A stretch of DNA of 64,000 nucleotides from sequence record PP418987.1; one strand, written 5' to 3'. Below are positions 1,886 to 64,000 of this stretch, piece by piece (position 1 is the first letter of the stretch; each line of letters starts with the position of its first letter). The notes under the pieces were generated by a model, which saw only the letters and a program-made list of their open reading frames with translations, searched no databases and was not told where the DNA came from. Source of the DNA: Escherichia phage UPWr_E4. Position numbers and translations under genes: made by a program.

Positions 1886-1922
1886 TTTACAAGCTGACAA
1901 GACTATGGTATAGTAGTCTTGT
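1885..1922 (+). promoter_or_regulatory. T4-type early promoter for dmd embedded in a 9-bp inverted repeat
   Basis: GTTTAC 1885-1890 overlaps gene 41 stop; TATAGT 1909-1914; ACAAGACTA (1897-1905) / TAGTCTTGT (1914-1922). Confidence 0.6.
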
Positions 1923-1943
1923 TGGTTAAATGAGGAGATTGTT

Positions 1944-4549: not shown

Positions 4550-4577
4550 TTACTTTCTCAGCTTGTTATGGTATTAT
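4548..4577 (+). promoter_or_regulatory. T4-type early promoter (GTTTAC ... TATTAT) for the nuclease-like ORF and dam
   Basis: -35 GTTTAC 4548-4553, 18-bp spacer, -10 TATTAT 4572-4577; about 25 nt upstream of the ATG at 4603. Confidence 0.6.
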
Positions 4578-4602
4578 AAAATAAATTGCTGAGGATGATA
4601 TA

Positions 4603-6835: not shown

Positions 6836-6843
6836 TAATTCAA

Positions 6844-6866
6844 GGACTCCTTCGGGAGTCCTTTTT
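6844..6866 (+). terminator. Intrinsic terminator GGACTCC-TTCG-GGAGTCC plus T5
   Basis: 7-bp GC-rich stem, UUCG tetraloop, U-run; directly after soc. Confidence 0.8.
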
Positions 6867-8987: not shown

Positions 8988-9017
8988 GTTTACTTTCCTT
9001 CCTAACAATGATATGAT
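8988..9017 (+). promoter_or_regulatory. T4-type early promoter
   Basis: GTTTAC 8988-8993, -10 TATGAT about 9012-9017. Confidence 0.55.
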
Positions 9018-9043
9018 AGCTTCTGAAGTATATGGAGGCTATC

Positions 9044-9667
9044 ATGATTATTAATCTCGCAGATGTTGAACAGTTATCTATAAAAGCTGAAAGTGTTGAT
9101 TTTCAATATGATATGTACAAAAAGGTCTGTGAAAAATTTACTGACTTTGAACAGTCAGTTCTTTGGCAGTGTATGGAAGCCAAAAAGAATGAAGCTCTTC
9201 ATCGGCAGTTGAATAAAATCGTTAAAAAGCATTTAACTAAATCGCCTTATCAGCTATATCGTGGTATATCAAAATCGACAAAAGAACTCATTAAAGATTT
9301 ACAAGTCGGAGAAGTGTTTTCAACGAACAGAGTAGATTCATTTACTACTAGTTTGCACACAGCATGTGGTTTTTCTTATGTTGAGTATTTCACTGAAATA
9401 ATATTTCGCTTAAAAACTGATAAAGCTTTTAATTATTCTGACCATATCAGCGATATTATACTTTCTTCTCCTAATACTGAATTTAAGTATACATATGAAG
9501 ATACTGATGGATTAGATTCAGAGCGTACTGATAACTTAATGATGATTGTGCGTGAACAAGAATGGATGATTCCAATTGGAAAGTATAGAATAACTTCTAT
9601 TTCAAAAGAAAAATTACACGATTCATTTGGAACATTTAAAGTGTATGATATTGAGGTAGTTGAATGA
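9044..9667 (+). CDS. modB: ADP-ribosyltransferase, ModB-like
   Basis: 207 aa from ATG 9044 (GGAGG 5 nt upstream; track start 9032); R-S-E ART motifs (YRGI, STS-like, QEWMIP); size as T4 ModB. Confidence 0.65.
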   Translation: MIINLADVEQLSIKAESVDFQYDMYKKVCEKFTDFEQSVLWQCMEAKKNEALHRQLNKIVKKHLTKSPYQLYRGISKSTKELIKDLQVGEVFSTNRVDSFTTSLHTACGFSYVEYFTEIIFRLKTDKAFNYSDHISDIILSSPNTEFKYTYEDTDGLDSERTDNLMMIVREQEWMIPIGKYRITSISKEKLHDSFGTFKVYDIEVVE

Positions 9668-13958: not shown

Positions 13959-13988
13959 ATTTACTTCCTCGGTTAGTTGTGGTATTAT
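13959..13988 (+). promoter_or_regulatory. T4-type early promoter
   Basis: ATTTAC 13959-13964, 18-bp spacer, TATTAT 13983-13988. Confidence 0.55.
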
Positions 13989-14015
13989 AACACCATAGCT
14001 ACTGAGGATAATAAA

Positions 14016-15067: not shown

Positions 15068-15096
15068 TTTACAAACTCTTGGGACCAGAGTATAAT
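15067..15096 (+). promoter_or_regulatory. T4-type early promoter with dyad symmetry around the -10
   Basis: GTTTAC 15067-15072, TATAAT 15091-15096; inverted repeat GGACCA/TGGTCC flanks the -10. Confidence 0.6.
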
Positions 15097-15140
15097 GGTC
15101 CTGTGGAGTATAAAATCTTTTTAACAAGTGAGAGATAATT

Positions 15141-15632: not shown

Positions 15633-15662
15633 AGTTTAAAATTTTTTCATAAAACTATATAC

Positions 15663-15705
15663 ATCAGTAGTTGATTATGGTACTATATCAATATCAACTA
15701 CTGAT
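15663..15705. repeat. 13-bp perfect inverted repeat (ATCAGTAGTTGAT / ATCAACTACTGAT) with 17-nt loop containing a -10-like GGTACTATAT
   Basis: Arms at 15663-15675 and 15693-15705, counted from the flanking ORF boundaries. Confidence 0.6.
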
Positions 15706-15803: not shown

Positions 15804-16022
15804 ATGATGAAACGTAAAATTGTTCAGAATTGCACTAATGATGAATTTGAAGATGTATTATTCGATCCAGATTTGGTAGTAGTTCAAAAGGAACACACTA
15901 TCAAGTTTACTCACTTGACTTCGGTTTATGTATATGAGAAAGTCGGTGATAAACAACCAATTTACGGTGTATTTCGTGAAATCACTGAAGATGGTACAAC
16001 TTACTGGAAGGAAATTTATTAA
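15804..16022 (+). CDS. Hypothetical small protein (T4 cef position)
   Basis: 72-aa ORF, RBS GAGGAAA. Confidence 0.5.
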
Positions 16023-18785: not shown

Positions 18786-18814
18786 TTTACTTTACCACAA
18801 GGATGTGGTATAAT
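18785..18814 (+). promoter_or_regulatory. T4-type early promoter
   Basis: GTTTAC 18785-18790 overlapping gene 39 stop; TATAAT 18809-18814; CCACA/TGTGG dyad in the spacer. Confidence 0.55.
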
Positions 18815-23574: not shown

Positions 23575-23604
23575 GTTTACAAGACTGTTCTTCCGTGGTA
23601 CTAT
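23575..23604 (+). promoter_or_regulatory. T4-type early promoter (cassette family)
   Basis: GTTTAC 23575-23580, TACTAT 23599-23604; shares GTTCTTCC(G/A)TGGTACTAT with the 44316 promoter. Confidence 0.55.
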
Positions 23605-23632
23605 TACCCTATCAACTACGGAGGAACAGAAA

Positions 23633-26659: not shown

Positions 26660-26664
26660 TTTTA

Positions 26665-26690
26665 GGGAGAGCCGAGGCTCTCCCTTTTTT
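26665..26690 (+). terminator. Intrinsic terminator GGGAGAGC-CGAG-GCTCTCCC plus T6
   Basis: 8-bp perfect stem and U-run. Confidence 0.85.
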
Positions 26691-31531: not shown

Positions 31532-34500
31532 TTAGAATTTAAAATAATTACTAATTTTGCGAGCAATTTTAGTGAAGAAAGGCGTTTTTAATTCTTTAAT
31601 TTCTTCGCTCATTTCTTGGATAGCCTTAATTAAAAGAGCATTTACAGCGGAGTTAGAAATTGTCAGAACATCAGAACCATCAACTTCAACTTTAGACACA
31701 GCTTCCGGTAATTCCTTTTCAAGGTCCTGAGCAATAATACCAACTTCGCGTTTAATAACACTACGGTCTTTAATAGACTTAACCTTATCGTAAATATAAA
31801 CTTTCAGTCGGCATACTTTTTCAAGTGCTCCGTTTTCTAGCTCTTTTTTATTAATCTTAAGACGACCATCGGAACGAATATACACATCGTTAAAGTTACC
31901 ATTACCAGGAGAATAGAAAGTACCGTCGTAATGAAATTCAAATACCGCGTTAGGGTGTCCAGTCGCTGGCGATGCCTGTGCAGATCCAACACGAATAATT
32001 GCTTGCCCCCAATTATTAGGGACACGACGAATACCAAGATCGACGGCAGTTACAAACCCTTGATTGGTGATTACACTTTTTCCTTTAATAATTGGATAAT
32101 AACAATCCTGTGAAACATAACCATGATCGACGAATAATGGAGCTTCTACTCGCCATTGGTTGCCCCAATCACCCGGTTGTCTAGCAATCCATCCAGAACC
32201 GTTAATGTGTACACGATCGCGGTTAACGTTAACCATTGCGATATTTTGTGGATTTAGCGAAATCTCACCATTGTTTGTGATATGTACTGCCGCCTGAGTA
32301 GCATAGCTATAAAATGCTAGCGAATTATCAGCACCACCCTTACCAATATACCAGTTACCACTCCCGTCTACGTCACCACGAATATGCAAAGCATTACCAG
32401 CAGTTGTTGATAATACAATAGAATCACCCGGACGTTTAATAATCAATCTACCTTCGGATTCAACTTCACCAAAGAATTTAGTTTTAATTGCACCAGTCGC
32501 TAAAGTACGTTCAGTGGAAAAATGAACGCCTTTGCTGTCTTCTAACTGAATAATGTTATCGCGCGCATTATTACTATCACCCCAATGGTTAAATTTAAAA
32601 TAATCTCGTGATCCTAAACGTCCGGCATCAAAAGTCATCAAGCCTTTTATATTAATATCACCACCAAAAAATGCGGTGAGAGAATCGCGTTTTAATTTTA
32701 AAACGTTAGCACCACTAGTACCACCCAAAGTAACATCACCAGTTCTTAATTCATAACGGAAAGGTCTATTTGTATTAAAGTTTCCATCTTGATCATTTTC
32801 GTCGGTGGAAAGAATATAAAGACTCTCTCCATCATTACGGAAAATTGTACCAAATTTTCCGCCATACATACGGAATGCATTAGATGAGCGGAATTTAACT
32901 TCTGTTTTAAATGTGGTAGTGTTATTAAGGTTAACAGTAGAGTTAAAATTGGTAGGAGCACCGAAGTTAACTGCGCCATTAAAATCTTGTTGAGCTGTCC
33001 ATGTGTGGCGACCATCTTCAAGAACAACACGGCGGACTGTGCAAGTTCTATTTCCAGAATTACCGAACACACGAACGACAAAATAACGGTAGTTTGTCTG
33101 GGATACAGTACCGCGCCAAACCTGAACAGTACGCCCTGTGCTAGTGTGTTCACTAGGACCAACGGAAAACATAACCAGGTTTCCGTCAATCGTCCCCCAA
33201 TCCATATTTGCTGGCATGTTCTTTATTTTGTTCAAAGGAACGCTAAACATACTACCAGGAACAAAATCAAAGGTTTGCCAATCTAACTCCGCTAATTGAG
33301 CTTTAATACCACCCATACCCAAAGTAATTGGAAGAGAATAAATCGTCCCCCAATCCATATTTGCTGGCATGTTCTTTATTTTGTTCAAAGGAACGCTAAA
33401 CATACTACCAGGAACAAAATCAAAGGTTTGCCAATCTAACTCCGCTAATTGAGCTTTAATACCACCCATACCCAAAGTAATTGGAAGAGAATAAGATGTA
33501 TATACTTCGTTCCATGCACCCCACGCACCACCAGTATATGCACGCTCAAAAATACGATCGCGAGTAGTTGCACCCGTTCCGGCAGTAGTAAATTTTTGGA
33601 AAATAGCACCACCAGAAGCACGCTGTTTAACTTCCAGCAAACCAACAATAACAGTCGGCAAACCTTCACCGGTAGGACAGTTAATAACGGCATCAGTGCC
33701 TAAAATATTATATAACCCAGGAGTTTTAAAATCATTCAGATCTCCGTCATAGAAAGTCGCCGGTGTGACATTACCGACTTGTTGCCAAGGTCCCCATTTA
33801 GGCGCAGAAGCATCCCACGCAGCAGTAAGACAACGAGTATAAACAACACCAAATCTGGTCGTATATCTCTGTGTGCGAGAATAGTTTCCACCTTCATATA
33901 CTTCTAAAAGTCCTTGAGCGGACGATCCTTCTTCTGGGAAATTTCTGTCAAAGGTAGCAATGGAACTTGAACTATTTCGCCACAAACCAAAGTGTTCAGC
34001 GCCTCCTAGATCATTAAGATCAATTGTTGTTGACAGTGGACGAGTACCAGATTGAATATTTCGCCACACACTCCACGGACCATTTACTCCGTTCCATGTA
34101 GCAGTCAAGGAACGAATATAAACATTTCCGTATCTAGTTGTATATCTCTGAGTACCAGCAAATTGACCGGCCACAAATACTTCTAGCACACCTACAGCAT
34201 TTTCTTCTGGAAATTTATTTGCTGGTTGAGCGTTGGTTGAAGTTGCTTTCGACCAAACTCCAAGACATTCTTCAACAGGCCCATACGTATCTAAATTAGC
34301 ATCAACAGGTAATTCGCCATTATTTTTTATAAACGTTGTGCTATTGACATTTATGTCAGATGGAGTTAGCGTGATATCTTTTGACCCATCAAAGGATATA
34401 CCATTAATTTTTCGTGCTGTTTTTAATTTCGTTGCAGTTGCAGCGTTACCTGTTAAATTTCCAATTATATTTCCATTAACAGTTAAAGAACCATCAATTG

Positions 34501-34669
34501 TTCCTCCATATTTTAAACCTAATTCTATAACACTACCTGAGTCATCTTTTGTGAAAATTGTTTTATCTTTTAAGTTTATAGCCAATTCACCTTCGGCTAA
34601 TACTGAAGCAGCAGGACGTTGACCTGCAGTTTTGCTTCTTTTAAATTGTATTTGTTTTAAAGTAGCCAT
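31532..34669 (-). CDS. 37: Long tail fibre distal subunit gp37
   Basis: 1045 aa (T4 gp37 1026 aa); N-terminus [33 protein letters not shown]; contains a tandem 51-aa duplication. Confidence 0.9.
33188..33493 (-). repeat. Perfect tandem duplication, 2 x 153 bp, inside gene 37 (residues 393-443 and 444-494)
   Basis: Identical DNA at 33188-33340 and 33341-33493; protein [51 protein letters not shown] repeated twice. Confidence 0.85.
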
Positions 34670-34677
34670 AAGTCCTC

Positions 34678-35328
34678 TTAATAATAGCCGAAATCTTGAA
34701 CAGAATCCTTAATTACGATTTGGTCAAATCGTGGAACGTGTGAAGGTTGAGATGCAGGATTCTGTGAAAAAAGGTTTGGCGCAGTTAAATTTCCTGTCAT
34801 AGTGTCTCCAGAGCGTAATACCCTAGAGTTTGCATTTGCTGTAACAGTATTTATTGCTCCATCAACATAATCTTTACGAGTAACATCAGATGCTGCGGAA
34901 GGAGTAGATGTAACAGTTACAGATGGAGCCGTTACAGCTTTGGTAAATGTTGTCAAACCTTCTGGCGTAATCGTAATTTGTCCAGTAGTGATTTCACTAC
35001 CTGCTGGTCTAAAACTAATACCGCCAGAAGAGCCACCAACTACAAGAGTATTACCAGTGCCGCCACCAGAACGAATTCGGATAGGGGTTTCATTATTACT
35101 TAATTGAAGATAACTATTTACCCCGTAATTAATAGTAATTGGACCGGCGTAAGTACCACCATTAGCTTTAGAAACGAAATCGTTATCAGCTGCCTGCGGT
35201 TTATTATATTCTGAATATATTTTAAATGATTTGTAGAGTACATCGTCACCGGCTGAATTCAATGGAAAATTTCCTTGATGCCAAATGACAGATCCACCCA
35301 CAGTTGAACCTACTTTTAAATCAGCCAT
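34678..35328 (-). CDS. 36: Long tail fibre hinge/distal connector gp36
   Basis: 216 aa (T4 gp36 221 aa), between 35 and 37. Confidence 0.85.
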
Positions 35329-35351
35329 TATATGCCCCTTTATTTTAATAT

Positions 35352-40429: not shown

Positions 40430-40459
40430 GTTTACTTTAAGATTTAGATAGTATATAAT
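40430..40459 (+). promoter_or_regulatory. T4-type early promoter for rnh with dyad symmetry enclosing the -10
   Basis: GTTTAC 40430-40435, TATAAT 40454-40459; inverted repeat AGATTT (40440-45) / AAATCT (40462-67). Confidence 0.6.
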
Positions 40460-40488
40460 AGAAATCTCACTAATTGAACGAGGTTCAT

Positions 40489-45048: not shown

Positions 45049-45077
45049 TTTACATAGGGTTTTAGTTGTGATACTAT
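45048..45077 (+). promoter_or_regulatory. T4-type early promoter with -10 in the loop of a 7-bp inverted repeat
   Basis: GTTTAC 45048-45053, TACTAT 45072-45077; ATAGGGT (45054-60) / ACCCTAT (45079-85). Confidence 0.6.
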
Positions 45078-45107
45078 TACCCTATCAAAACTAATGGAGA
45101 AAAGAAA

Positions 45108-45176
45108 ATGTTAGCACCTTATATTATGGCAGCAGTTATGTTGGTTTGTTTATATCTTTTGATTAAAGCTTGCTAA
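45108..45176 (+). CDS. Tiny hydrophobic peptide (22 aa)
   Basis: MLAPYIMAAVMLVCLYLLIKAC with GGAG upstream; very short, may not be translated. Confidence 0.3.
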   Translation: MLAPYIMAAVMLVCLYLLIKAC

Positions 45177-54371: not shown

Positions 54372-54401
54372 GTTTACAAGTCCCTCGTGTTGTGTTATAG
54401 T
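54372..54401 (+). promoter_or_regulatory. T4-type early promoter for alc, nested in an imperfect hairpin that also covers the alc SD
   Basis: GTTTAC 54372-54377, TATAGT 54396-54401; AAGTCC (54378-83) pairs with GGACTT (54423-28) overlapping SD GAGGA; inner GTTAT/ATAAC. Confidence 0.55.
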
Positions 54402-54429
54402 AGTCTTACTGACATAACATGAGGACTTT

Positions 54430-57691: not shown

Positions 57692-57721
57692 GTTTACTTT
57701 ACGGTAGAGTTGTGATATTAT
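57692..57721 (+). promoter_or_regulatory. T4-type early promoter with -10 in the loop of a 7-bp inverted repeat
   Basis: GTTTAC 57692-57697, TATTAT 57716-57721; GGTAGAG (57703-09) / CTCTACC (57724-30). Confidence 0.6.
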
Positions 57722-57751
57722 AGCTCTACCAAAACAAACGAGGAAATTGAA

Positions 57752-59967: not shown

Positions 59968-60023
59968 ATGCTTTAAGAATTATTTGTTATTATTAATTCA
60001 TCTGTTAACAAAAAGGAAAAACG

Positions 60024-60359
60024 ATGTCTGAAGTACAACAGCTACCAATTCGTGCTGTCGGTGAATATGTTATTTTAGTTTCTGAACCTGCACAAGCCGG
60101 TGATGAAGAAGTTACAGAATCAGGACTTATTATCGGTAAACGTGTTCAAGGTGAAGTTCCTGAACTGTGTGTAGTTCACTCTGTCGGTCCTGATGTTCCT
60201 GAAGGTTTCTGCGAAGTTGGCGATTTGACTTCTCTTCCAGTTGGTCAAATTCGAAATGTTCCGCATCCTTTTGTAGCTCTGGGTCTTAAGCAGCCAAAAG
60301 AAATTAAACAAAAATTCGTTACCTGTCACTATAAAGCTATTCCGTGTCTTTATAAGTGA
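60024..60359 (+). CDS. 31: Co-chaperonin gp31 (GroES analogue for capsid folding)
   Basis: 111 aa; [30 protein letters not shown] matches T4 gp31. Confidence 0.9.
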
Positions 60360-60367
60360 TATAAATA
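60360..60367 (+). promoter_or_regulatory. T4 late promoter TATAAATA upstream of rIII
   Basis: Exact TATAAATA immediately after the gene 31 stop. Confidence 0.55.
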
Positions 60368-60506
60368 ATAATATGAATTGGGTGTCGGAATAATAAGTTA
60401 ACCGAACAATTCTATGTGGTAGTCTACAACTGAGAGATCTGTCGAAAGAAGATGAAATTCAGAAGAACGTGACTACCGAGTTTTAATCTCTAACGAGAAT
60501 TTTTAA

Positions 60507-60755
60507 ATGATTAAACAATTACAACACGCTCTTGAACTGCAACGAAACGCATGGAATAATGGTCACGAAAACTATGGCGCATCTATTGATGTTGAAGCCG
60601 AAGCTCTTGAAATCCTGCGTTATTTCAAACATCTGAATCCTGCTCAAACTGCATTAGCTGCTGAGCTTCAGGAAAAAGATGAACTTAAATATGCTAAGCC
60701 TCTGGCTTCTGCTGCACGAAAAGCAGTTCGTCACTTTGTGGTAACACTGAAGTAA
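60507..60755 (+). CDS. rIII: rIII lysis-inhibition accessory protein
   Basis: 82 aa, size and position after gene 31 as T4 rIII. Confidence 0.75.
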   Translation: MIKQLQHALELQRNAWNNGHENYGASIDVEAEALEILRYFKHLNPAQTALAAELQEKDELKYAKPLASAARKAVRHFVVTLK

Positions 60756-61153
60756 TTTATTGGAGAGTCACTGCCTTAGTGTGAAGTTAAAACGAGGAGC
60801 CGTCGAACTGTCTGATTAATGATTTGCGAATCATTATAGTTTTAAGACCCCGGCAGTTTTACGGTGTACCTCTTGAATGTTATTCTTATAGCGGCAAGTG
60901 CATGCTACCCCGAGGTGATGGCCAATCGGGAGTACGCCTCAAGGCCTATATATCCATCAGTATATATCTTATCCTCGAGAAATCGAACCCGGAACCTTTA
61001 AGCTAACGGTGTGCAACAGATAAGAGCTATAAGGTATGATGACGGGTTTATGGTTATCCTGGTCGTTAAATATCAAAAAACCTATGTTCCCCTTGAGGGC
61101 TTGCGCAGGCAATGCCAATAAGTCCTGCATTTTCATTTAAAAGAGAATTTATA
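60756..61153 (+). other. ORF-free, GC-enriched intergenic region with multiple stem-loops (candidate structured RNA or long 3' UTR)
   Basis: About 400 bp with no ATG-initiated ORF on either strand; hairpin TAATGATT-TGCG-AATCATTA near 60816-60835; long-range 8-bp pairing CCTCAAGG / CCTTGAGG; terminal hairpin GCAGG...CCTGC plus U-rich tail around 61104-61137. Confidence 0.3.
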
Positions 61154-61330
61154 ATGGCAAAACAAGCTAAAGCAAAGAAAGCAGTTGAAAAGAAAGTTGG
61201 TGATTCTAAACGCGCTGGCTACAAGCGTGGGTCGAACTCTCGTATCAATCAAACTGTTGAGAAGATCATGCGCCGAGCACGTGCGGTTCTTCGAGATGAT
61301 GCTTCTCGTTTTGGTAAGCAGAAAGCATAA
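61154..61330 (+). CDS. Small basic protein (T4 30.9 position)
   Basis: 58 aa from ATG 61154 (AAAGAGAA upstream; track start 61112); MAKQAKAKKAVEKKVGDSKRAGYKRG... Confidence 0.5.
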   Translation: MAKQAKAKKAVEKKVGDSKRAGYKRGSNSRINQTVEKIMRRARAVLRDDASRFGKQKA

Positions 61331-61335
61331 GTTGA

Positions 61336-61364
61336 GGACTCCTTCGGGAGTCCTTTTTTATTTT
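61336..61364 (+). terminator. Intrinsic terminator GGACTCC-TTCG-GGAGTCC plus T6 (same hairpin as at 6844)
   Basis: Identical 18-nt hairpin to the soc terminator, followed by U-run. Confidence 0.8.
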
Positions 61365-61383
61365 CCAAAGATTGCATAAAGTT

Positions 61384-61416
61384 GTTTACAGTATGGTTCC
61401 TTTGTGATAGTATTAT
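61384..61416 (+). promoter_or_regulatory. T4-type early promoter with -10 in the loop of an inverted repeat
   Basis: GTTTAC 61384-61389; TAGTATTAT -10 region; TTTGTG (61402-07) / CACAAA (61421-26). Confidence 0.55.
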
Positions 61417-61440
61417 CTTACACAAACAAAGGAGAATAAA

Positions 61441-61773
61441 ATGAAAACGATTAATCTGAACGCTGCAGTTAAAACTAAATGCTTCAATGGTAAATATGAT
61501 GAAACTATGTGGTTCTTAATGGCAGTTGAAGGTGATATTATTGAAGTAGAAACAACAGAAGGTATGGGAACAGATTTCACCTTTACAATTCAAGTTCATA
61601 ATTTCTTTACTGGTTGGATTTATGAATTGAATACAGTAATCGTTGGAAAAATTGAACAAAATGAATTAGGTGAATGGTATTATGTTACAGCTCGCCAACG
61701 TGCCGAACGCTTAATTGAGAAGATGAAAAAAGTTGGTAAACTTGACATGCAGCATTGGAAAGTAGTAAAATAA
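61441..61773 (+). CDS. Hypothetical protein (T4 30.8 position)
   Basis: 110-aa ORF, RBS AAAGGAGAA. Confidence 0.55.
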   Translation: MKTINLNAAVKTKCFNGKYDETMWFLMAVEGDIIEVETTEGMGTDFTFTIQVHNFFTGWIYELNTVIVGKIEQNELGEWYYVTARQRAERLIEKMKKVGKLDMQHWKVVK

Positions 61774-61775
61774 TT

Positions 61776-61804
61776 GTTTACTTTGGTACAGGATATGATA
61801 TTAT
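61776..61804 (+). promoter_or_regulatory. T4-type early promoter with -10 in the loop of an 8-bp perfect inverted repeat
   Basis: GTTTAC 61776-61781, TATTAT 61799-61804; GGTACAGG (61785-92) / CCTGTACC (61808-15). Confidence 0.65.
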
Positions 61805-61840
61805 ATACCTGTACCGCAATTAAACATCTTGGAGAATAAA

Positions 61841-62215
61841 ATGAACTACATCAACTTTGAACGTAAATATGTTTCTAATGTTTCTAACGGTATTACAGGT
61901 TCTATTGATACTATTTGCCTTTGGAAACATCAAAATGGATCAGTATGCGAAATTGAGCAGTATATGACTCCTAATTACGTTTATATGCGATTTGAAAACG
62001 GTATCACGGTTTCAATCACGATGGAAGGTTCCAACTTTAAAATCGCTCTGGATGATGATTTCCGTGAACGCGATTTAGGGACTCATCCTTGCTGGAATGG
62101 CGTTAATCGCAAGCTTTTGGTTAAAACTTGGATTCGTCATATTCTGAGTAACAGAGCTAAACCTGAGCATCTTGAAGCAATCTTTGATGTAGTTCTTAAC
62201 GAATTTGATATTTAA
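61841..62215 (+). CDS. Hypothetical protein (T4 30.7 position)
   Basis: 124 aa from ATG 61841 (GGAG upstream; track uses TTG 61829). Confidence 0.55.
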   Translation: MNYINFERKYVSNVSNGITGSIDTICLWKHQNGSVCEIEQYMTPNYVYMRFENGITVSITMEGSNFKIALDDDFRERDLGTHPCWNGVNRKLLVKTWIRHILSNRAKPEHLEAIFDVVLNEFDI

Positions 62216-62224
62216 AATAAATGA

Positions 62225-62238
62225 GGGGCTTTGGCCCC
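62225..62238 (+). other. RNA stem-loop GGGGC-TTTG-GCCCC (no U-tract) upstream of the next SD
   Basis: 5-bp GC stem directly after the 61841 ORF and before GAGGAAAATGTTATG. Confidence 0.5.
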
Positions 62239-62255
62239 TTACTGAGGAAAATGTT

Positions 62256-62543
62256 ATGTTTATGACTACTTATTTTGATACCCGTAAAAACTTCTGCGAA
62301 GTAGTTTTCTCAAAGGCGCCTAAAGACCTTCCTGCACATTTGCAACCTACTAGCGAATCGATTAAAAACTACGTTAATGTAGTCTGCCCTTTAGAGTTTC
62401 GTACTGTAAATGGGCGCGATACTTTAGCTATCACTAAACTCAATCGCGAAATTGACATTGATCCCTCAATTGCGCGTGAAATTAATAGTTCTGATATTAA
62501 TGGCGGTAATGTTAAATCGCACGGTTTTCAGATGAGGTTTTAA
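62256..62543 (+). CDS. Hypothetical protein (T4 30.6 position)
   Basis: 95 aa from ATG 62256 (GAGGA upstream; track uses TTG 62205). Confidence 0.5.
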   Translation: MFMTTYFDTRKNFCEVVFSKAPKDLPAHLQPTSESIKNYVNVVCPLEFRTVNGRDTLAITKLNREIDIDPSIAREINSSDINGGNVKSHGFQMRF

Positions 62544-62740
62544 TGAAATTCTTTTTAGGTCAAACTGTTGAATTAAAGGGAGTTGGTATACCTGGATTAA
62601 TTTCTAAGGTTCTACCTCCGTTTAAATGGAGTGGTATTCAAATAAAAGAGGCTTATATTGTTTTCTGGGTAGATGGAAATGAAGACCTTCGTATGGGTGA
62701 TGAATTATCTCCTATCTACGGATTAAAGGAAATAGTATGA
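62543..62740 (+). CDS. Hypothetical small protein
   Basis: 65 aa, coupled. Confidence 0.5.
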   Translation: MKFFLGQTVELKGVGIPGLISKVLPPFKWSGIQIKEAYIVFWVDGNEDLRMGDELSPIYGLKEIV

Positions 62741-62943
62741 ATATAATTAATAAGATTTTTGGAATTCAGTACATTAAGGTCACATATAAAGTAACAGATA
62801 AAAATCCGTATACTGATGAACATGAAGAACCGCAAGTTGAGTCTATTATATTAGAAAAGGACCCTAACTGGCCAGTTGAATTTCGTCTTCCTTGCTATGG
62901 TCATTGGGCTGATGTTGAAATTATAAGCATTGAAAATGTCTGA
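62737..62943 (+). CDS. Hypothetical small protein
   Basis: 68 aa, ATGA-coupled. Confidence 0.5.
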   Translation: MNIINKIFGIQYIKVTYKVTDKNPYTDEHEEPQVESIILEKDPNWPVEFRLPCYGHWADVEIISIENV

Positions 62944-63394
62944 GTTAGAGATTAGAAGCAATTTTAGGTGGCCATCATGTGCATTAAGTAATTTCGCCCA
63001 TTGGCCTTTCGTTATGGATGGCATTCAATTTGGAGGTCTTGAAGGATTCCTCCAAGGATGCAAAGTGAAAAATGTTGAACAACAACGTCGTATATTTGGG
63101 TTATCCGGGCTTGCCGCCCAACAAGCTGGAAGGTCTTATGCAAGAGCTCAGGACCGTGGGACCCTCTTCTGGCTTGGAGTTCCATTTTCAAGATACTCCC
63201 CGGCGTGGAAAGAATTATACACAAATGCATATTTTGAAGCAGCGATCCAAAACAAGGGCTTCCGTGATGCATTACAAGCCTCGAAAGGAAAAGTTTTGAA
63301 GCACAGCATGGCTAGTGGTCTAACAAAAGATGATACAATACTAACCGAAGCTGAATTTATTGATGTGTTAAACCTATTAAGAGACTCTCTATGA
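62930..63394 (+). CDS. NADAR/YbiA-family (DUF1768-like) protein
   Basis: 154 aa; LSNFAHWPFVMDG resembles the conserved FSNFA.WP motif of YbiA/NADAR proteins; GC content higher than neighbours. Confidence 0.55.
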   Translation: MKMSELEIRSNFRWPSCALSNFAHWPFVMDGIQFGGLEGFLQGCKVKNVEQQRRIFGLSGLAAQQAGRSYARAQDRGTLFWLGVPFSRYSPAWKELYTNAYFEAAIQNKGFRDALQASKGKVLKHSMASGLTKDDTILTEAEFIDVLNLLRDSL

Positions 63395-64000
63395 AGCCTA
63401 CTATTTTAACTGATATTGATGGAGTATGTTTAAGCTGGCAATCAGGCCTTCCTTATTTTGCTCAGAAATATAATCTTCCGTTAGAACATATTTTAAAAAT
63501 GATCCAGGATGAGAAATTTATTTCTCCTGGTAAACTATTTAATTGCGATGAAGAACTTGGCGTTAAGCTAATTGAAAAATACAATCGTTCGGATTTTATT
63601 CGATACTTGTCTCCATATAAAGATGCCCTGTGTGTAATTAACAAATTAAAAGAAGATTATAATTTTGTAGCTGTTACAGCATTGGGTGATTCTATTGACG
63701 CTCTGCTGAATCGTCAATTTAATTTGAATGCTCTTTTTCCTGGTGCCTTCTCAGAAGTACTGATGTGTGGTCATGATTCTTCAAAAGAAGAGTTGTTCAA
63801 AAAGGCAAAAGAAAAATATAACGTAATTTGTTATATTGACGATCTCGCTCACCACTGCGATCACGCAAGTGAAATATTAAATGTTCCTGTTTATTGGATG
63901 GCTCGAGGGGAACGTGACAGTATTCCAAAAACTGCACAGCGAGTTTATACATGGAATGATGTAGAGAATAAGCTTTTTCCATCGAAGGAAAATAAAGAAA
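63391..64000 (+). CDS. HAD-superfamily phosphatase / nucleotidase-like protein (3' end outside window)
   Basis: ATGA-coupled start 63391; HAD motif ILTDIDGV and later YIDD; no stop before window end. Confidence 0.55.
   Translation, partial: MKPTILTDIDGVCLSWQSGLPYFAQKYNLPLEHILKMIQDEKFISPGKLFNCDEELGVKLIEKYNRSDFIRYLSPYKDALCVINKLKEDYNFVAVTALGDSIDALLNRQFNLNALFPGAFSEVLMCGHDSSKEELFKKAKEKYNVICYIDDLAHHCDHASEILNVPVYWMARGERDSIPKTAQRVYTWNDVENKLFPSKENKE

Follow-up and report, generated by a model that had tools for sequence, protein, structure and literature searches.

About half of the early promoters in a 64,000-nucleotide (nt) stretch of Escherichia phage UPWr_E4 (sequence record PP418987.1; the whole stretch is called the window here) carry a hairpin around the -10 element, and these hairpins are a real, selected feature that matches the published promoter-early stem-loop (PeSL) cassettes of T4-type phages. 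The hairpins exist, exceed chance, centre on the -10 element, survive the turnover of their own sequence and favour the sense RNA; we consider it likely that selection maintains them as hairpins of the sense RNA that only read-through transcripts can form. Few bacterial-type promoters have been studied as thoroughly as the early promoters of T4. The reviews consulted go no further than 'additional regions of consensus' and name four late-promoter genes with promoter-in-hairpin control (PMC3014915). PeSLs were defined in phages RB49 and phi1 as stem-loops overlapping an early promoter, mostly between the -35 and -10 elements or over the -10, and were proposed as attenuators and recombination sites (Arbiol et al. 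2010, PMC2839356). The kind of element was thus in print in 2010 and 2014, and the novelty claimed here is modest.

Positions 60000–64000 share 99.8% identity with Yersinia phage PYps5T and about 99% with many Tequatrovirus genomes, and judged by this similarity the window is Tequatrovirus sequence. Comparison with annotated relatives and T4 places the hairpin singled out by an earlier, sequence-only reading (61785–61815, at promoter 61777) in the pseT-cd-31-rIII-30.9...30 early region, whose early-transcribed strand is the + strand of the window. Promoter 61777 lies upstream of the T4 30.7 homologue, promoter 61385 upstream of the 30.8 homologue, and promoter 57693 is the homologue of the annotated T4 promoter Pe133295, between cd.2 and cd.3; the hairpins at all three match T4 base for base. 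A scan of the window for TTTAC-N16-18-TAnnnT gave 25 matches on the + strand and 9 on the - strand. Twenty-one of the 25 have the full early-promoter look, namely a G before TTTAC, an A-rich upstream region, a TGn-extended -10 and a Shine-Dalgarno sequence with ATG 20–40 nt downstream, and a position-weight-matrix (PWM) scan added a 22nd at 15658, with the -35 variant TATACA (PWM score 30.4). All 22 early promoters are of the TTTACW-N17-TAYWAT type with TGn and A-rich upstream sequence, every one on the + strand, and this is also the consensus given for the PST/T4 pair. Stop codons lie 0–25 nt ahead of the -35 at 1886, 45049, 57693 and 61777, and the genes behind intergenic promoters of this kind include the 30.7, 30.8 and cd.2 homologues.

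Hairpins spanning the -10 are far more frequent than chance predicts. As the measure we took the longest perfect Watson-Crick stem with one arm in the promoter spacer and the other at most 22 nt past the -10, applied to the 21 window promoters found by TTTAC-N17/18-TAnnnT, with 2000 shuffles as the null. The dyad symmetry around -10 elements proposed by the sequence-only reading held up in this systematic scan: stems of at least 6 base pairs (bp) occur at 9 of the 21 promoters against 2.2 by shuffle (maximum 8), and stems of at least 7 bp at 5 against 0.56. As a further control, spacers were combined with downstream parts from other promoters, which fully keeps the position-specific composition, and in such chimeras the two thresholds were reached in 11.7% and 3.3% of cases against the observed 42.9% and 23.8%. 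Four protein-anchored scans of viral contigs then provided 153 loci from T4-like phages, in which the same pattern, combined with an AT-rich upstream region and a Shine-Dalgarno sequence with ATG, gave 196 unique promoters (192 on the early strand), 98 of them non-redundant at <75% identity. Stems of at least 8 bp are present at 26 of the 98 (1.05 expected from shuffles, 2.08 from chimeras) and stems of at least 10 bp at 15 (0.05–0.28 expected), the longest reaching 13 bp, which is the entire free length of the spacer.

All seven inverted repeats that the sequence-only reading had listed are present, with one arm off by a single position (the 61402 arm begins at 61401). As predicted RNA folds, six of the seven sites exceed dinucleotide shuffles in stability by a wide margin (z -2.6 to -5.6), among them the flagged one (-16.1 kcal/mol, z = -5.4) and that of promoter 61385 (-12.1 kcal/mol, z -2.6), whereas the 40440 repeat is at chance level. 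The repeat TTTGTG/CACAAA at 61402 exists as claimed, but it is the weaker alternative to a stable helix, UUCCUUUGU/ACAAAGGAG, that masks the Shine-Dalgarno sequence; and the list lacked the strongest hairpin of the window, at 15663–15705 on the promoter with the variant -35 TATACA. The 40440 promoter lies past a divergent junction, so that by the map of open reading frames (ORFs) the gene directly upstream is not co-directional. Overall, about 12 of the 22 window promoters have a -10-enclosing hairpin at -11 kcal/mol or lower. The whole window holds 76 inverted repeats of at least 8 bp against 46.5 under a Markov null, mostly AT-rich. MotA-box-like and TATAAATA sites in the window, which are few and unverified, had no comparable hairpin enrichment, and no Rfam family matched anywhere in the window at gathering thresholds.

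The position of the hairpins is sharply defined. Across the roughly 150 nt surveyed at each promoter, the centres of the hairpins cluster on the -10 hexamer; left arms occur only at -17..-5 relative to its first base, and right arms fall into two groups, at +5..+16 and +23..+31, both the arms and the linkers after them being C/A-rich and G-poor. Two classes can be separated by geometry. In class I the 3' arm, placed 0–14 nt past the -10, begins within a few nt of it and ends 4–14 nt after it, across the expected start site; in class II the partner of the spacer is the downstream gene's Shine-Dalgarno sequence or AUG. In both, the 5' arm always lies within the promoter spacer, upstream of the start site, and therefore only read-through RNA can fold. 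Start sites predicted from promoter geometry, by the rule of the 7th nt past the -10, would lie inside the 3' arm or between the helix strands, and Pe133295 maps onto the A of the right arm CTCTACC, if the number in that promoter name is its start coordinate, as we read it. The earlier statements that transcripts start inside the right arm, and that folding is therefore limited to read-through RNA or to DNA, agree with these positions, the right arms straddling the 7th nt. A loose motif, CYTAYCAA, was also seen at or just past the start site of many early promoters, where it makes up many right arms.

Comparison of orthologous promoters, grouped by the protein encoded downstream, indicates that the hairpin itself is what is kept through sequence turnover. 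In the 30.7 group, 17 of 18 alleles have a stem score of at least 8, while the arms are unrelated across lineages and of at least six kinds (GGTACAGG, TTTGGTACAGGT, TTTGTAGGAGAC, GCTGATTGAGTGT, GGTGAGGGTCT and TTGGTGTAGGAGTA), which bears out the earlier claim that structure is conserved and sequence is not. Some relatives in this group carry Shine-Dalgarno-masking stems instead (CTCCGTTGTATGT/ACATACAACGGAG and CTCCGAGGTTT/AAACCTCGGAG), and the L003 allele equals that of the window except for one C-to-T change that creates a G.U pair. The group of promoter 54373 retains a stem in 15 of 16 alleles, with both classes represented. Because stem registers differ, we compared own arms with arms taken from different orthologues, and the mean stem score was 11.0–11.3 for the former and 6.7–7.1 for the latter. 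The comparison of orthologues for compensatory change, which the sequence-only reading had suggested, thus finds the fold kept; the register relative to the -10 shifts slightly between orthologues, and part of the turnover therefore reflects new invention of stems or the exchange of cassettes, and not compensation pair by pair. The classes also replace each other: the 30.7 promoter is class I in most lineages and class II in L018–L023, and the 54373 promoter is class II in most lineages and class I in L014 and L024.

Imperfections in the stems point to RNA rather than DNA, a step beyond the sequence-only reading. Interior mismatches in real stems number 22 G.U, 6 A.C and 10 other, against 75, 83 and 203 in chimeras (P = 0.0008). 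Sense RNA is also more stable than antisense by 1.1 kcal/mol beyond the expectation from composition (P = 6e-5); at 57693 the sense fold has -16.3 kcal/mol and the antisense fold -9.1, and at 1886 the values are -18.9 and -10.1. A G.T mismatch read on one DNA strand appears as A.C on its complement, so a bias towards G.U is unexpected for a cruciform, and the predominance of G.U among the mismatches together with the better folding of the sense strand argues for selection on the sense RNA, not the DNA. This strand evidence, obtained on related sequences pruned of duplicates, is good but not final.

Complementarity of class II spacers to the ribosome-binding site is a direct observation, while an effect of the hairpins on translation is a prediction. 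We expressed masking as ddG, the difference in the cost of opening the ribosome-binding site between read-through RNA and RNA starting at the promoter. This reaches at least 5 kcal/mol (5–18) at 8 of the 22 window promoters (4549, 6878, 8989, 13960, 15068, 23576, 54373 and 61385), and roughly a third of the hairpins are predicted to mask the ribosome-binding site, a class that the sequence-only reading had not described. Class I sites have ddG values of 0–2.6 and leave the ribosome-binding site open, and the flagged site, with about the same cost in both RNAs, falls outside the masking class. In the family set, 19 of 97 promoters have a ddG of 8 kcal/mol or more, where shuffled spacers give 6.0 (maximum 9), so that this null gives an excess only in the tail. 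Against the chimera null the excess has P = 0.07; swapped spacers mask too, because anti-Shine-Dalgarno motifs such as TTCCTC and TCTCC turn up in many spacers. Behind many early promoters (e.g. 61829–61843 and 61429–61443) comes a recurrent ribosome-binding site, GGAGAATAAAATG, which resembles the RegB GGAG targets described in the T4 RNA-decay review.

Table 1. Promoter elements at the flagged site and hairpins at other early promoters of the window; z is relative to dinucleotide shuffles, and ddG (kcal/mol) is the predicted difference in the opening cost of the ribosome-binding site.
Feature	Position	Strand	Values and remarks
-35 TTTACT, promoter of 30.7 homologue	61777..61782	+	Pattern match, PWM and independent sigma-70 scan; identical in T4
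5' arm GGTACAGG, class I, within promoter spacer	61785..61792	+	RNA fold widens arm to 61784-61797
Extended -10 TGa TATTAT, forming the hairpin loop	61796..61804	+	Sequence, sigma-70 scan
3' arm CCTGTACC, spanning predicted start ~61811 (7th nt past -10)	61808..61815	+	
Shine-Dalgarno GGAG and ATG of 30.7 homologue, predicted unmasked by the class I hairpin	61829..61843	+	ddG ~0
Class I GGTAGAG(UUGUG)/(UAUAG)CTCTACC around -10, Pe133295 homologue	57703..57730	+	57693 fold -16.3 kcal/mol, z -5.2
Class I ATAGGGT/ACCCTAT	45054..45085	+	45049 fold -13.7 kcal/mol, z -3.2
Class I, 9-bp perfect core ACAAGACTA/TAGTCTTGT, 15 pairs with G.U	1892..1927	+	1886 fold -18.9 kcal/mol, z -5.6
GGACCA/TGGTCC with outer helix ACUCU/GGAGU around -10	15075..15109	+	15068 fold -17.4 kcal/mol, z -3.9
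Class I, 13-bp perfect stem ATCAGTAGTTGAT/ATCAACTACTGAT, loop holding TGGTACTAT	15663..15705	+	-20.2 kcal/mol, z -5.3
Class II UUCCUUUGU/ACAAAGGAG, spacer pairing with 30.8 Shine-Dalgarno	61397..61434	+	ddG 10.4; identical in T4
Class II, spacer pairing with ..ACATGAGGACTT (Shine-Dalgarno)	54378..54428	+	ddG 13.4; -24.4 kcal/mol; orthologue series
Class II CTGTTCTTCCGTGGT/ACTACGGAGGAACAG	23585..23629	+	ddG 17.9; -22.7 kcal/mol
Class II TCCTCGGTTAGTTGTGGT/ACCATAGCTACTGAGGA	13966..14008	+	ddG 13.4; -23.7 kcal/mol
Class II TTCTCAGC../..GCTGAGGA	4555..4595	+	ddG 12.1
Class II variant ATGATAGC/GCTATCAT; left arm begins inside -10, right arm on ATG 9032	9013..9045	+	ddG 12.3
AGATTT/AAATCT repeat, chance level	40440..40467	+	40431 fold -2.8 kcal/mol, z +0.83

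We propose that these PeSL-type stem-loops in T4-type early promoters act as RNA on sense read-through transcripts. The 5' arm fills the roughly 13 free spacer nt between TTTACW and the TGn-extended -10, so that RNA from the promoter itself, which lacks this arm, would stay open and RNA from an upstream promoter would fold. The hairpin could thereby shield each small early cassette from upstream read-through and let its own promoter set its expression. For class II, the hidden ribosome-binding site would leave read-through RNA poorly translated and own-promoter RNA well translated; a class I hairpin is probably either an attenuator without a U tract or the 3'-end stem-loop of the upstream message. 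That both classes insulate early genes from upstream read-through is somewhat more probable than the contrary, and a common role, exerted on RNA in class I and on translation in class II, is favoured because the classes replace each other at the same promoter. For attenuation as the way in which class I works, rather than stabilising or processing the upstream message, we would give clearly less than even chances. The RB49 PeSL stem-loop 211/210 is reported to have cut downstream lacZ about as much as the rrnB T1 terminator (PMC2839356), and in the genome this stem-loop reads AGGGGAT-cacgt-ATCCCCT with no U tract behind it. Sigma-dependent pausing via the -10 was considered separately and rejected by reasoning from pause geometry, because polymerase halted at the expected pause site would still hold the 3' arm within the RNA:DNA hybrid.

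Several points weigh against an insulating role. About 10 of the 22 window promoters are without a convincing hairpin, and it has been lost in L008, L012 and L015-17 of the 57693 group and in L024 of the 30.7 group; the element is therefore dispensable. A single insulation role for both classes is something we infer from their interchangeability, while in class I the ribosome-binding site stays accessible. Downstream of class I hairpins comes A/C-rich sequence (GCAATTAAAC, AAAACAAACG, CAAAACTAAT etc.) with no U run, so that efficient intrinsic termination is not expected, and none of those in the window was called terminator-like. Stems at promoters that follow true terminators are shorter, 4.9 vs 6.5 bp, which is not significant (P = 0.09, n = 9). 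The only functional test is the single reporter assay in the distant relative RB49, and a literature search for 5'- and 3'-end mapping of T4 (Term-seq, dRNA-seq, cappable-seq) gave nothing usable. The related sequences compared are also not phylogenetically independent, duplicates alone having been removed.

The RNA-level evidence (G.U bias, arm positions and sense stability) would serve equally for class I hairpins on sense read-through RNA that are stability or processing elements and not attenuators, a reading we hold to be rather unlikely. Such a hairpin could be a 3'-exonuclease barrier that protects the upstream cistron after downstream cleavage (e.g. by RegB at the Shine-Dalgarno GGAG), or it could stop RNase E from scanning, or shield the C-rich start region against Rho. 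The missing U tract of class I is in keeping with it, as are the C/A-rich, G-poor right arms and following linkers, and many downstream ribosome-binding sites carry GGAG(AAUAAAAUG), like the RegB targets in PMC3014915. Taken alone, however, it leaves the replacement of class I by class II at orthologous promoters unexplained, and the RB49 reporter result suggests a drop in downstream expression. Read-through RNA is dispensed with if the repeats act as DNA, either as a cruciform or hairpin that tunes promoter melting or as hot spots of PeSL-mediated cassette recombination. The PeSL papers tie the cassettes to indels and mini-circles and map crossovers within or beside the stem-loop; downstream halves are common to non-orthologous promoters of one genome and cassettes have been swapped at orthologous promoters; and in an earlier T4 sequence the inverted stretch was precisely the 14-nt loop of one hairpin. 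Yet neither a duplex nor a cruciform would be expected to produce the excess of G.U over A.C or the greater sense stability, loops of 8–20 nt do not favour cruciform extrusion, it is the stems that vary within the cassette, so that they lower homology instead of supplying it, and the complementarity of class II arms is specific to the Shine-Dalgarno sequence or AUG. A DNA role is accordingly improbable.

The inverted loop is recorded as a misc_feature (T4 133300–133313; 6801–6814 in L155) with the words 'inverted complement of previously reported sequence; corrects the early promoter Pe133295', and it covers exactly the 14-nt loop TTGTGATATTATAG between GGTAGAG and CTCTACC (window 57710–57723). 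The earlier T4 sequence therefore had the hairpin loop flipped, which reflects either an artefact of sequencing or cloning caused by the hairpin, or else a genuine inversion between the inverted repeats.

It is very improbable that the hairpins have no function and stem from AT-rich low complexity, symmetry of the consensus, or template-switch (quasipalindrome) mutation and gene conversion. The chance-level 40440 site, the general excess of inverted repeats of at least 8 bp in the window, most of them AT-rich, and the loose consensus CYTAYCAA behind the -10 speak for such an origin, which the controls largely refute: chimeras that keep position-specific composition have 2–6 fold fewer stems, the hairpin position is sharply specific, the stem is kept in 17/18 and 15/16 orthologous alleles despite sequence replacement, and the mismatches are biased to G.U. 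We give as little credence to hairpins that serve antisense (late or opposite-strand) transcripts, e.g. as terminators or stabilisers. Perfect stems do fold on both strands, and the A-tracts upstream of the -35 become, on the antisense RNA, a U-rich stretch about 8–10 nt past the hairpin; but that stretch does not adjoin the stem, the sense strand folds better and has its mismatches as G.U, and complementarity of class II to the Shine-Dalgarno sequence would be meaningless on the other strand.

Among known systems the published PeSLs are closest, and the match proposed by the sequence-only reading is a fair one. Published and present elements alike consist of a strong sigma-70-type early promoter, AT-rich on its upstream side, set in a short gap between the upstream stop and the downstream Shine-Dalgarno/ATG ahead of small genes of unknown function, and overlapped by a stem-loop with G.U pairs. 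The RB49 genome also has stems that flank the -10 (e.g. GGAGTA-gtaaga-TACTCC and AAACGGGG..CCCCGTTT), and its spacer-internal hairpins share with all forms described here a 5' arm upstream of the start site. Many RB49/phi1 stem-loops, in contrast, are short Gn-loop-Cn hairpins wholly in the spacer, whereas the stems here are 7–13 bp, have no common sequence and bracket the -10. A caveat to the match is that the T4/PST paper (Comeau et al. 2014, PMC4122927) shows its stem-loops, which have an AGNA-loop-TCNT motif, 'just upstream' of the promoter and not around the -10. Shine-Dalgarno-masking stems, statistics and compensatory change between orthologues are absent from the portions of both PeSL papers at our disposal (PMC2839356, PMC4122927); relative to these portions, the -10-bracketing T4 hairpins, the statistics, the sense-RNA signature, the masking class and class switching are new, as refinements of a known element. 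The window also holds a hairpin with typical RB49 PeSL geometry, unlike the -10-bracketing form: ACCACA-AGGA-TGTGGT at 18793–18808 (promoter 18786), wholly in the spacer and overlapping the TGn and the first base of the -10.

The second comparison is with T4 e, soc, 49 and I-TevI, whose established control relies on a helix that sequesters the ribosome-binding site and has a promoter within its 5' strand (PMC3014915). As in class II (e.g. 61397–61434 and 23585–23629 have the same layout), long transcripts hide the Shine-Dalgarno/AUG and those from the internal promoter do not, and the internal start, which is predicted in our case, is between the helix strands or inside the 3' strand. The four genes, however, have late promoters (TATAAATA), so that translation is delayed to late infection, whereas the early internal promoter of class II would confine translation to its own early RNA; and the flagged class I site leaves the ribosome-binding site unmasked. 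A layout that looks like the late-promoter-in-hairpin of T4 e and soc was seen on the - strand at 35310–35348, where a late-promoter-like TATAAATA site (35359) is placed between CCCTTT and AAAGGG and the right arm adjoins the ATG of gene 34678–35328.

Intrinsic terminators likewise are stable intergenic RNA stem-loops between co-directional genes. Those of the window (6842–6863, 26664–26685 and 61335–61354) have 4-nt UUCG loops followed by a T run and are located upstream of the promoter's A-rich region, whereas the promoter hairpins hold the -10 in loops of 8–30 nt and have no T run. The terminators at 6842–6863 and 61335–61354, 54 kb apart, are the same (AGGACTCC TTCG GGAGTCCT and a T run), each just upstream of an early promoter, and constitute a repeated terminator cassette; that at 26664–26685 has a different stem.

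The analysis shifts the view of these promoters in that about half of them carry a read-through-only hairpin, kept through complete sequence turnover and selected on the sense RNA, which gives the PeSL idea a quantitative footing and resolves the 'terminator/attenuator' label into two testable mechanisms, ribosome-binding-site masking and a U-tract-less intercistronic stem-loop. More tentatively, the early-promoter spacer may be a general, evolvable 'anti-leader' selected to pair with the gene's own start region or ribosome-binding site, every early cassette being expressed only from own-promoter RNA and silenced or cut off on read-through; we advance both parts of this idea as speculative. 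If it were true, classes I and II would be functionally interchangeable and would swap freely in evolution, forming a genome-wide immediate-early insulation code, and the e/soc/49/I-TevI principle would extend from a few late genes to a large fraction of the early genes. Practical uses lie in the annotation of phage transcription units and in the engineering of T4-like phages, where a cassette placed behind such a promoter alters what read-through RNA can express.

Several further features of the window lie near these promoters or elsewhere in it. Right behind promoter 45049 is a 22-codon hydrophobic ORF (45108–45176; MLAPYIMAAVMLVCLYLLIKAC) with its own GGAG, whose stop overlaps the Shine-Dalgarno sequence of the next gene (ATG 45187); its product may be a small membrane peptide or a leader. 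Promoter 15658 is followed by an 8-codon ORF (ATG 15730), the next real gene beginning only at 15804. An identical 43-nt segment (ATTTTGTTC...GAACAAAAT), itself an inverted repeat, occurs at 33225–33267 and 33378–33420, 153 nt apart, inside the large - strand ORF 31532–34669, and is probably an internal repeat of a tail-fibre-type gene.

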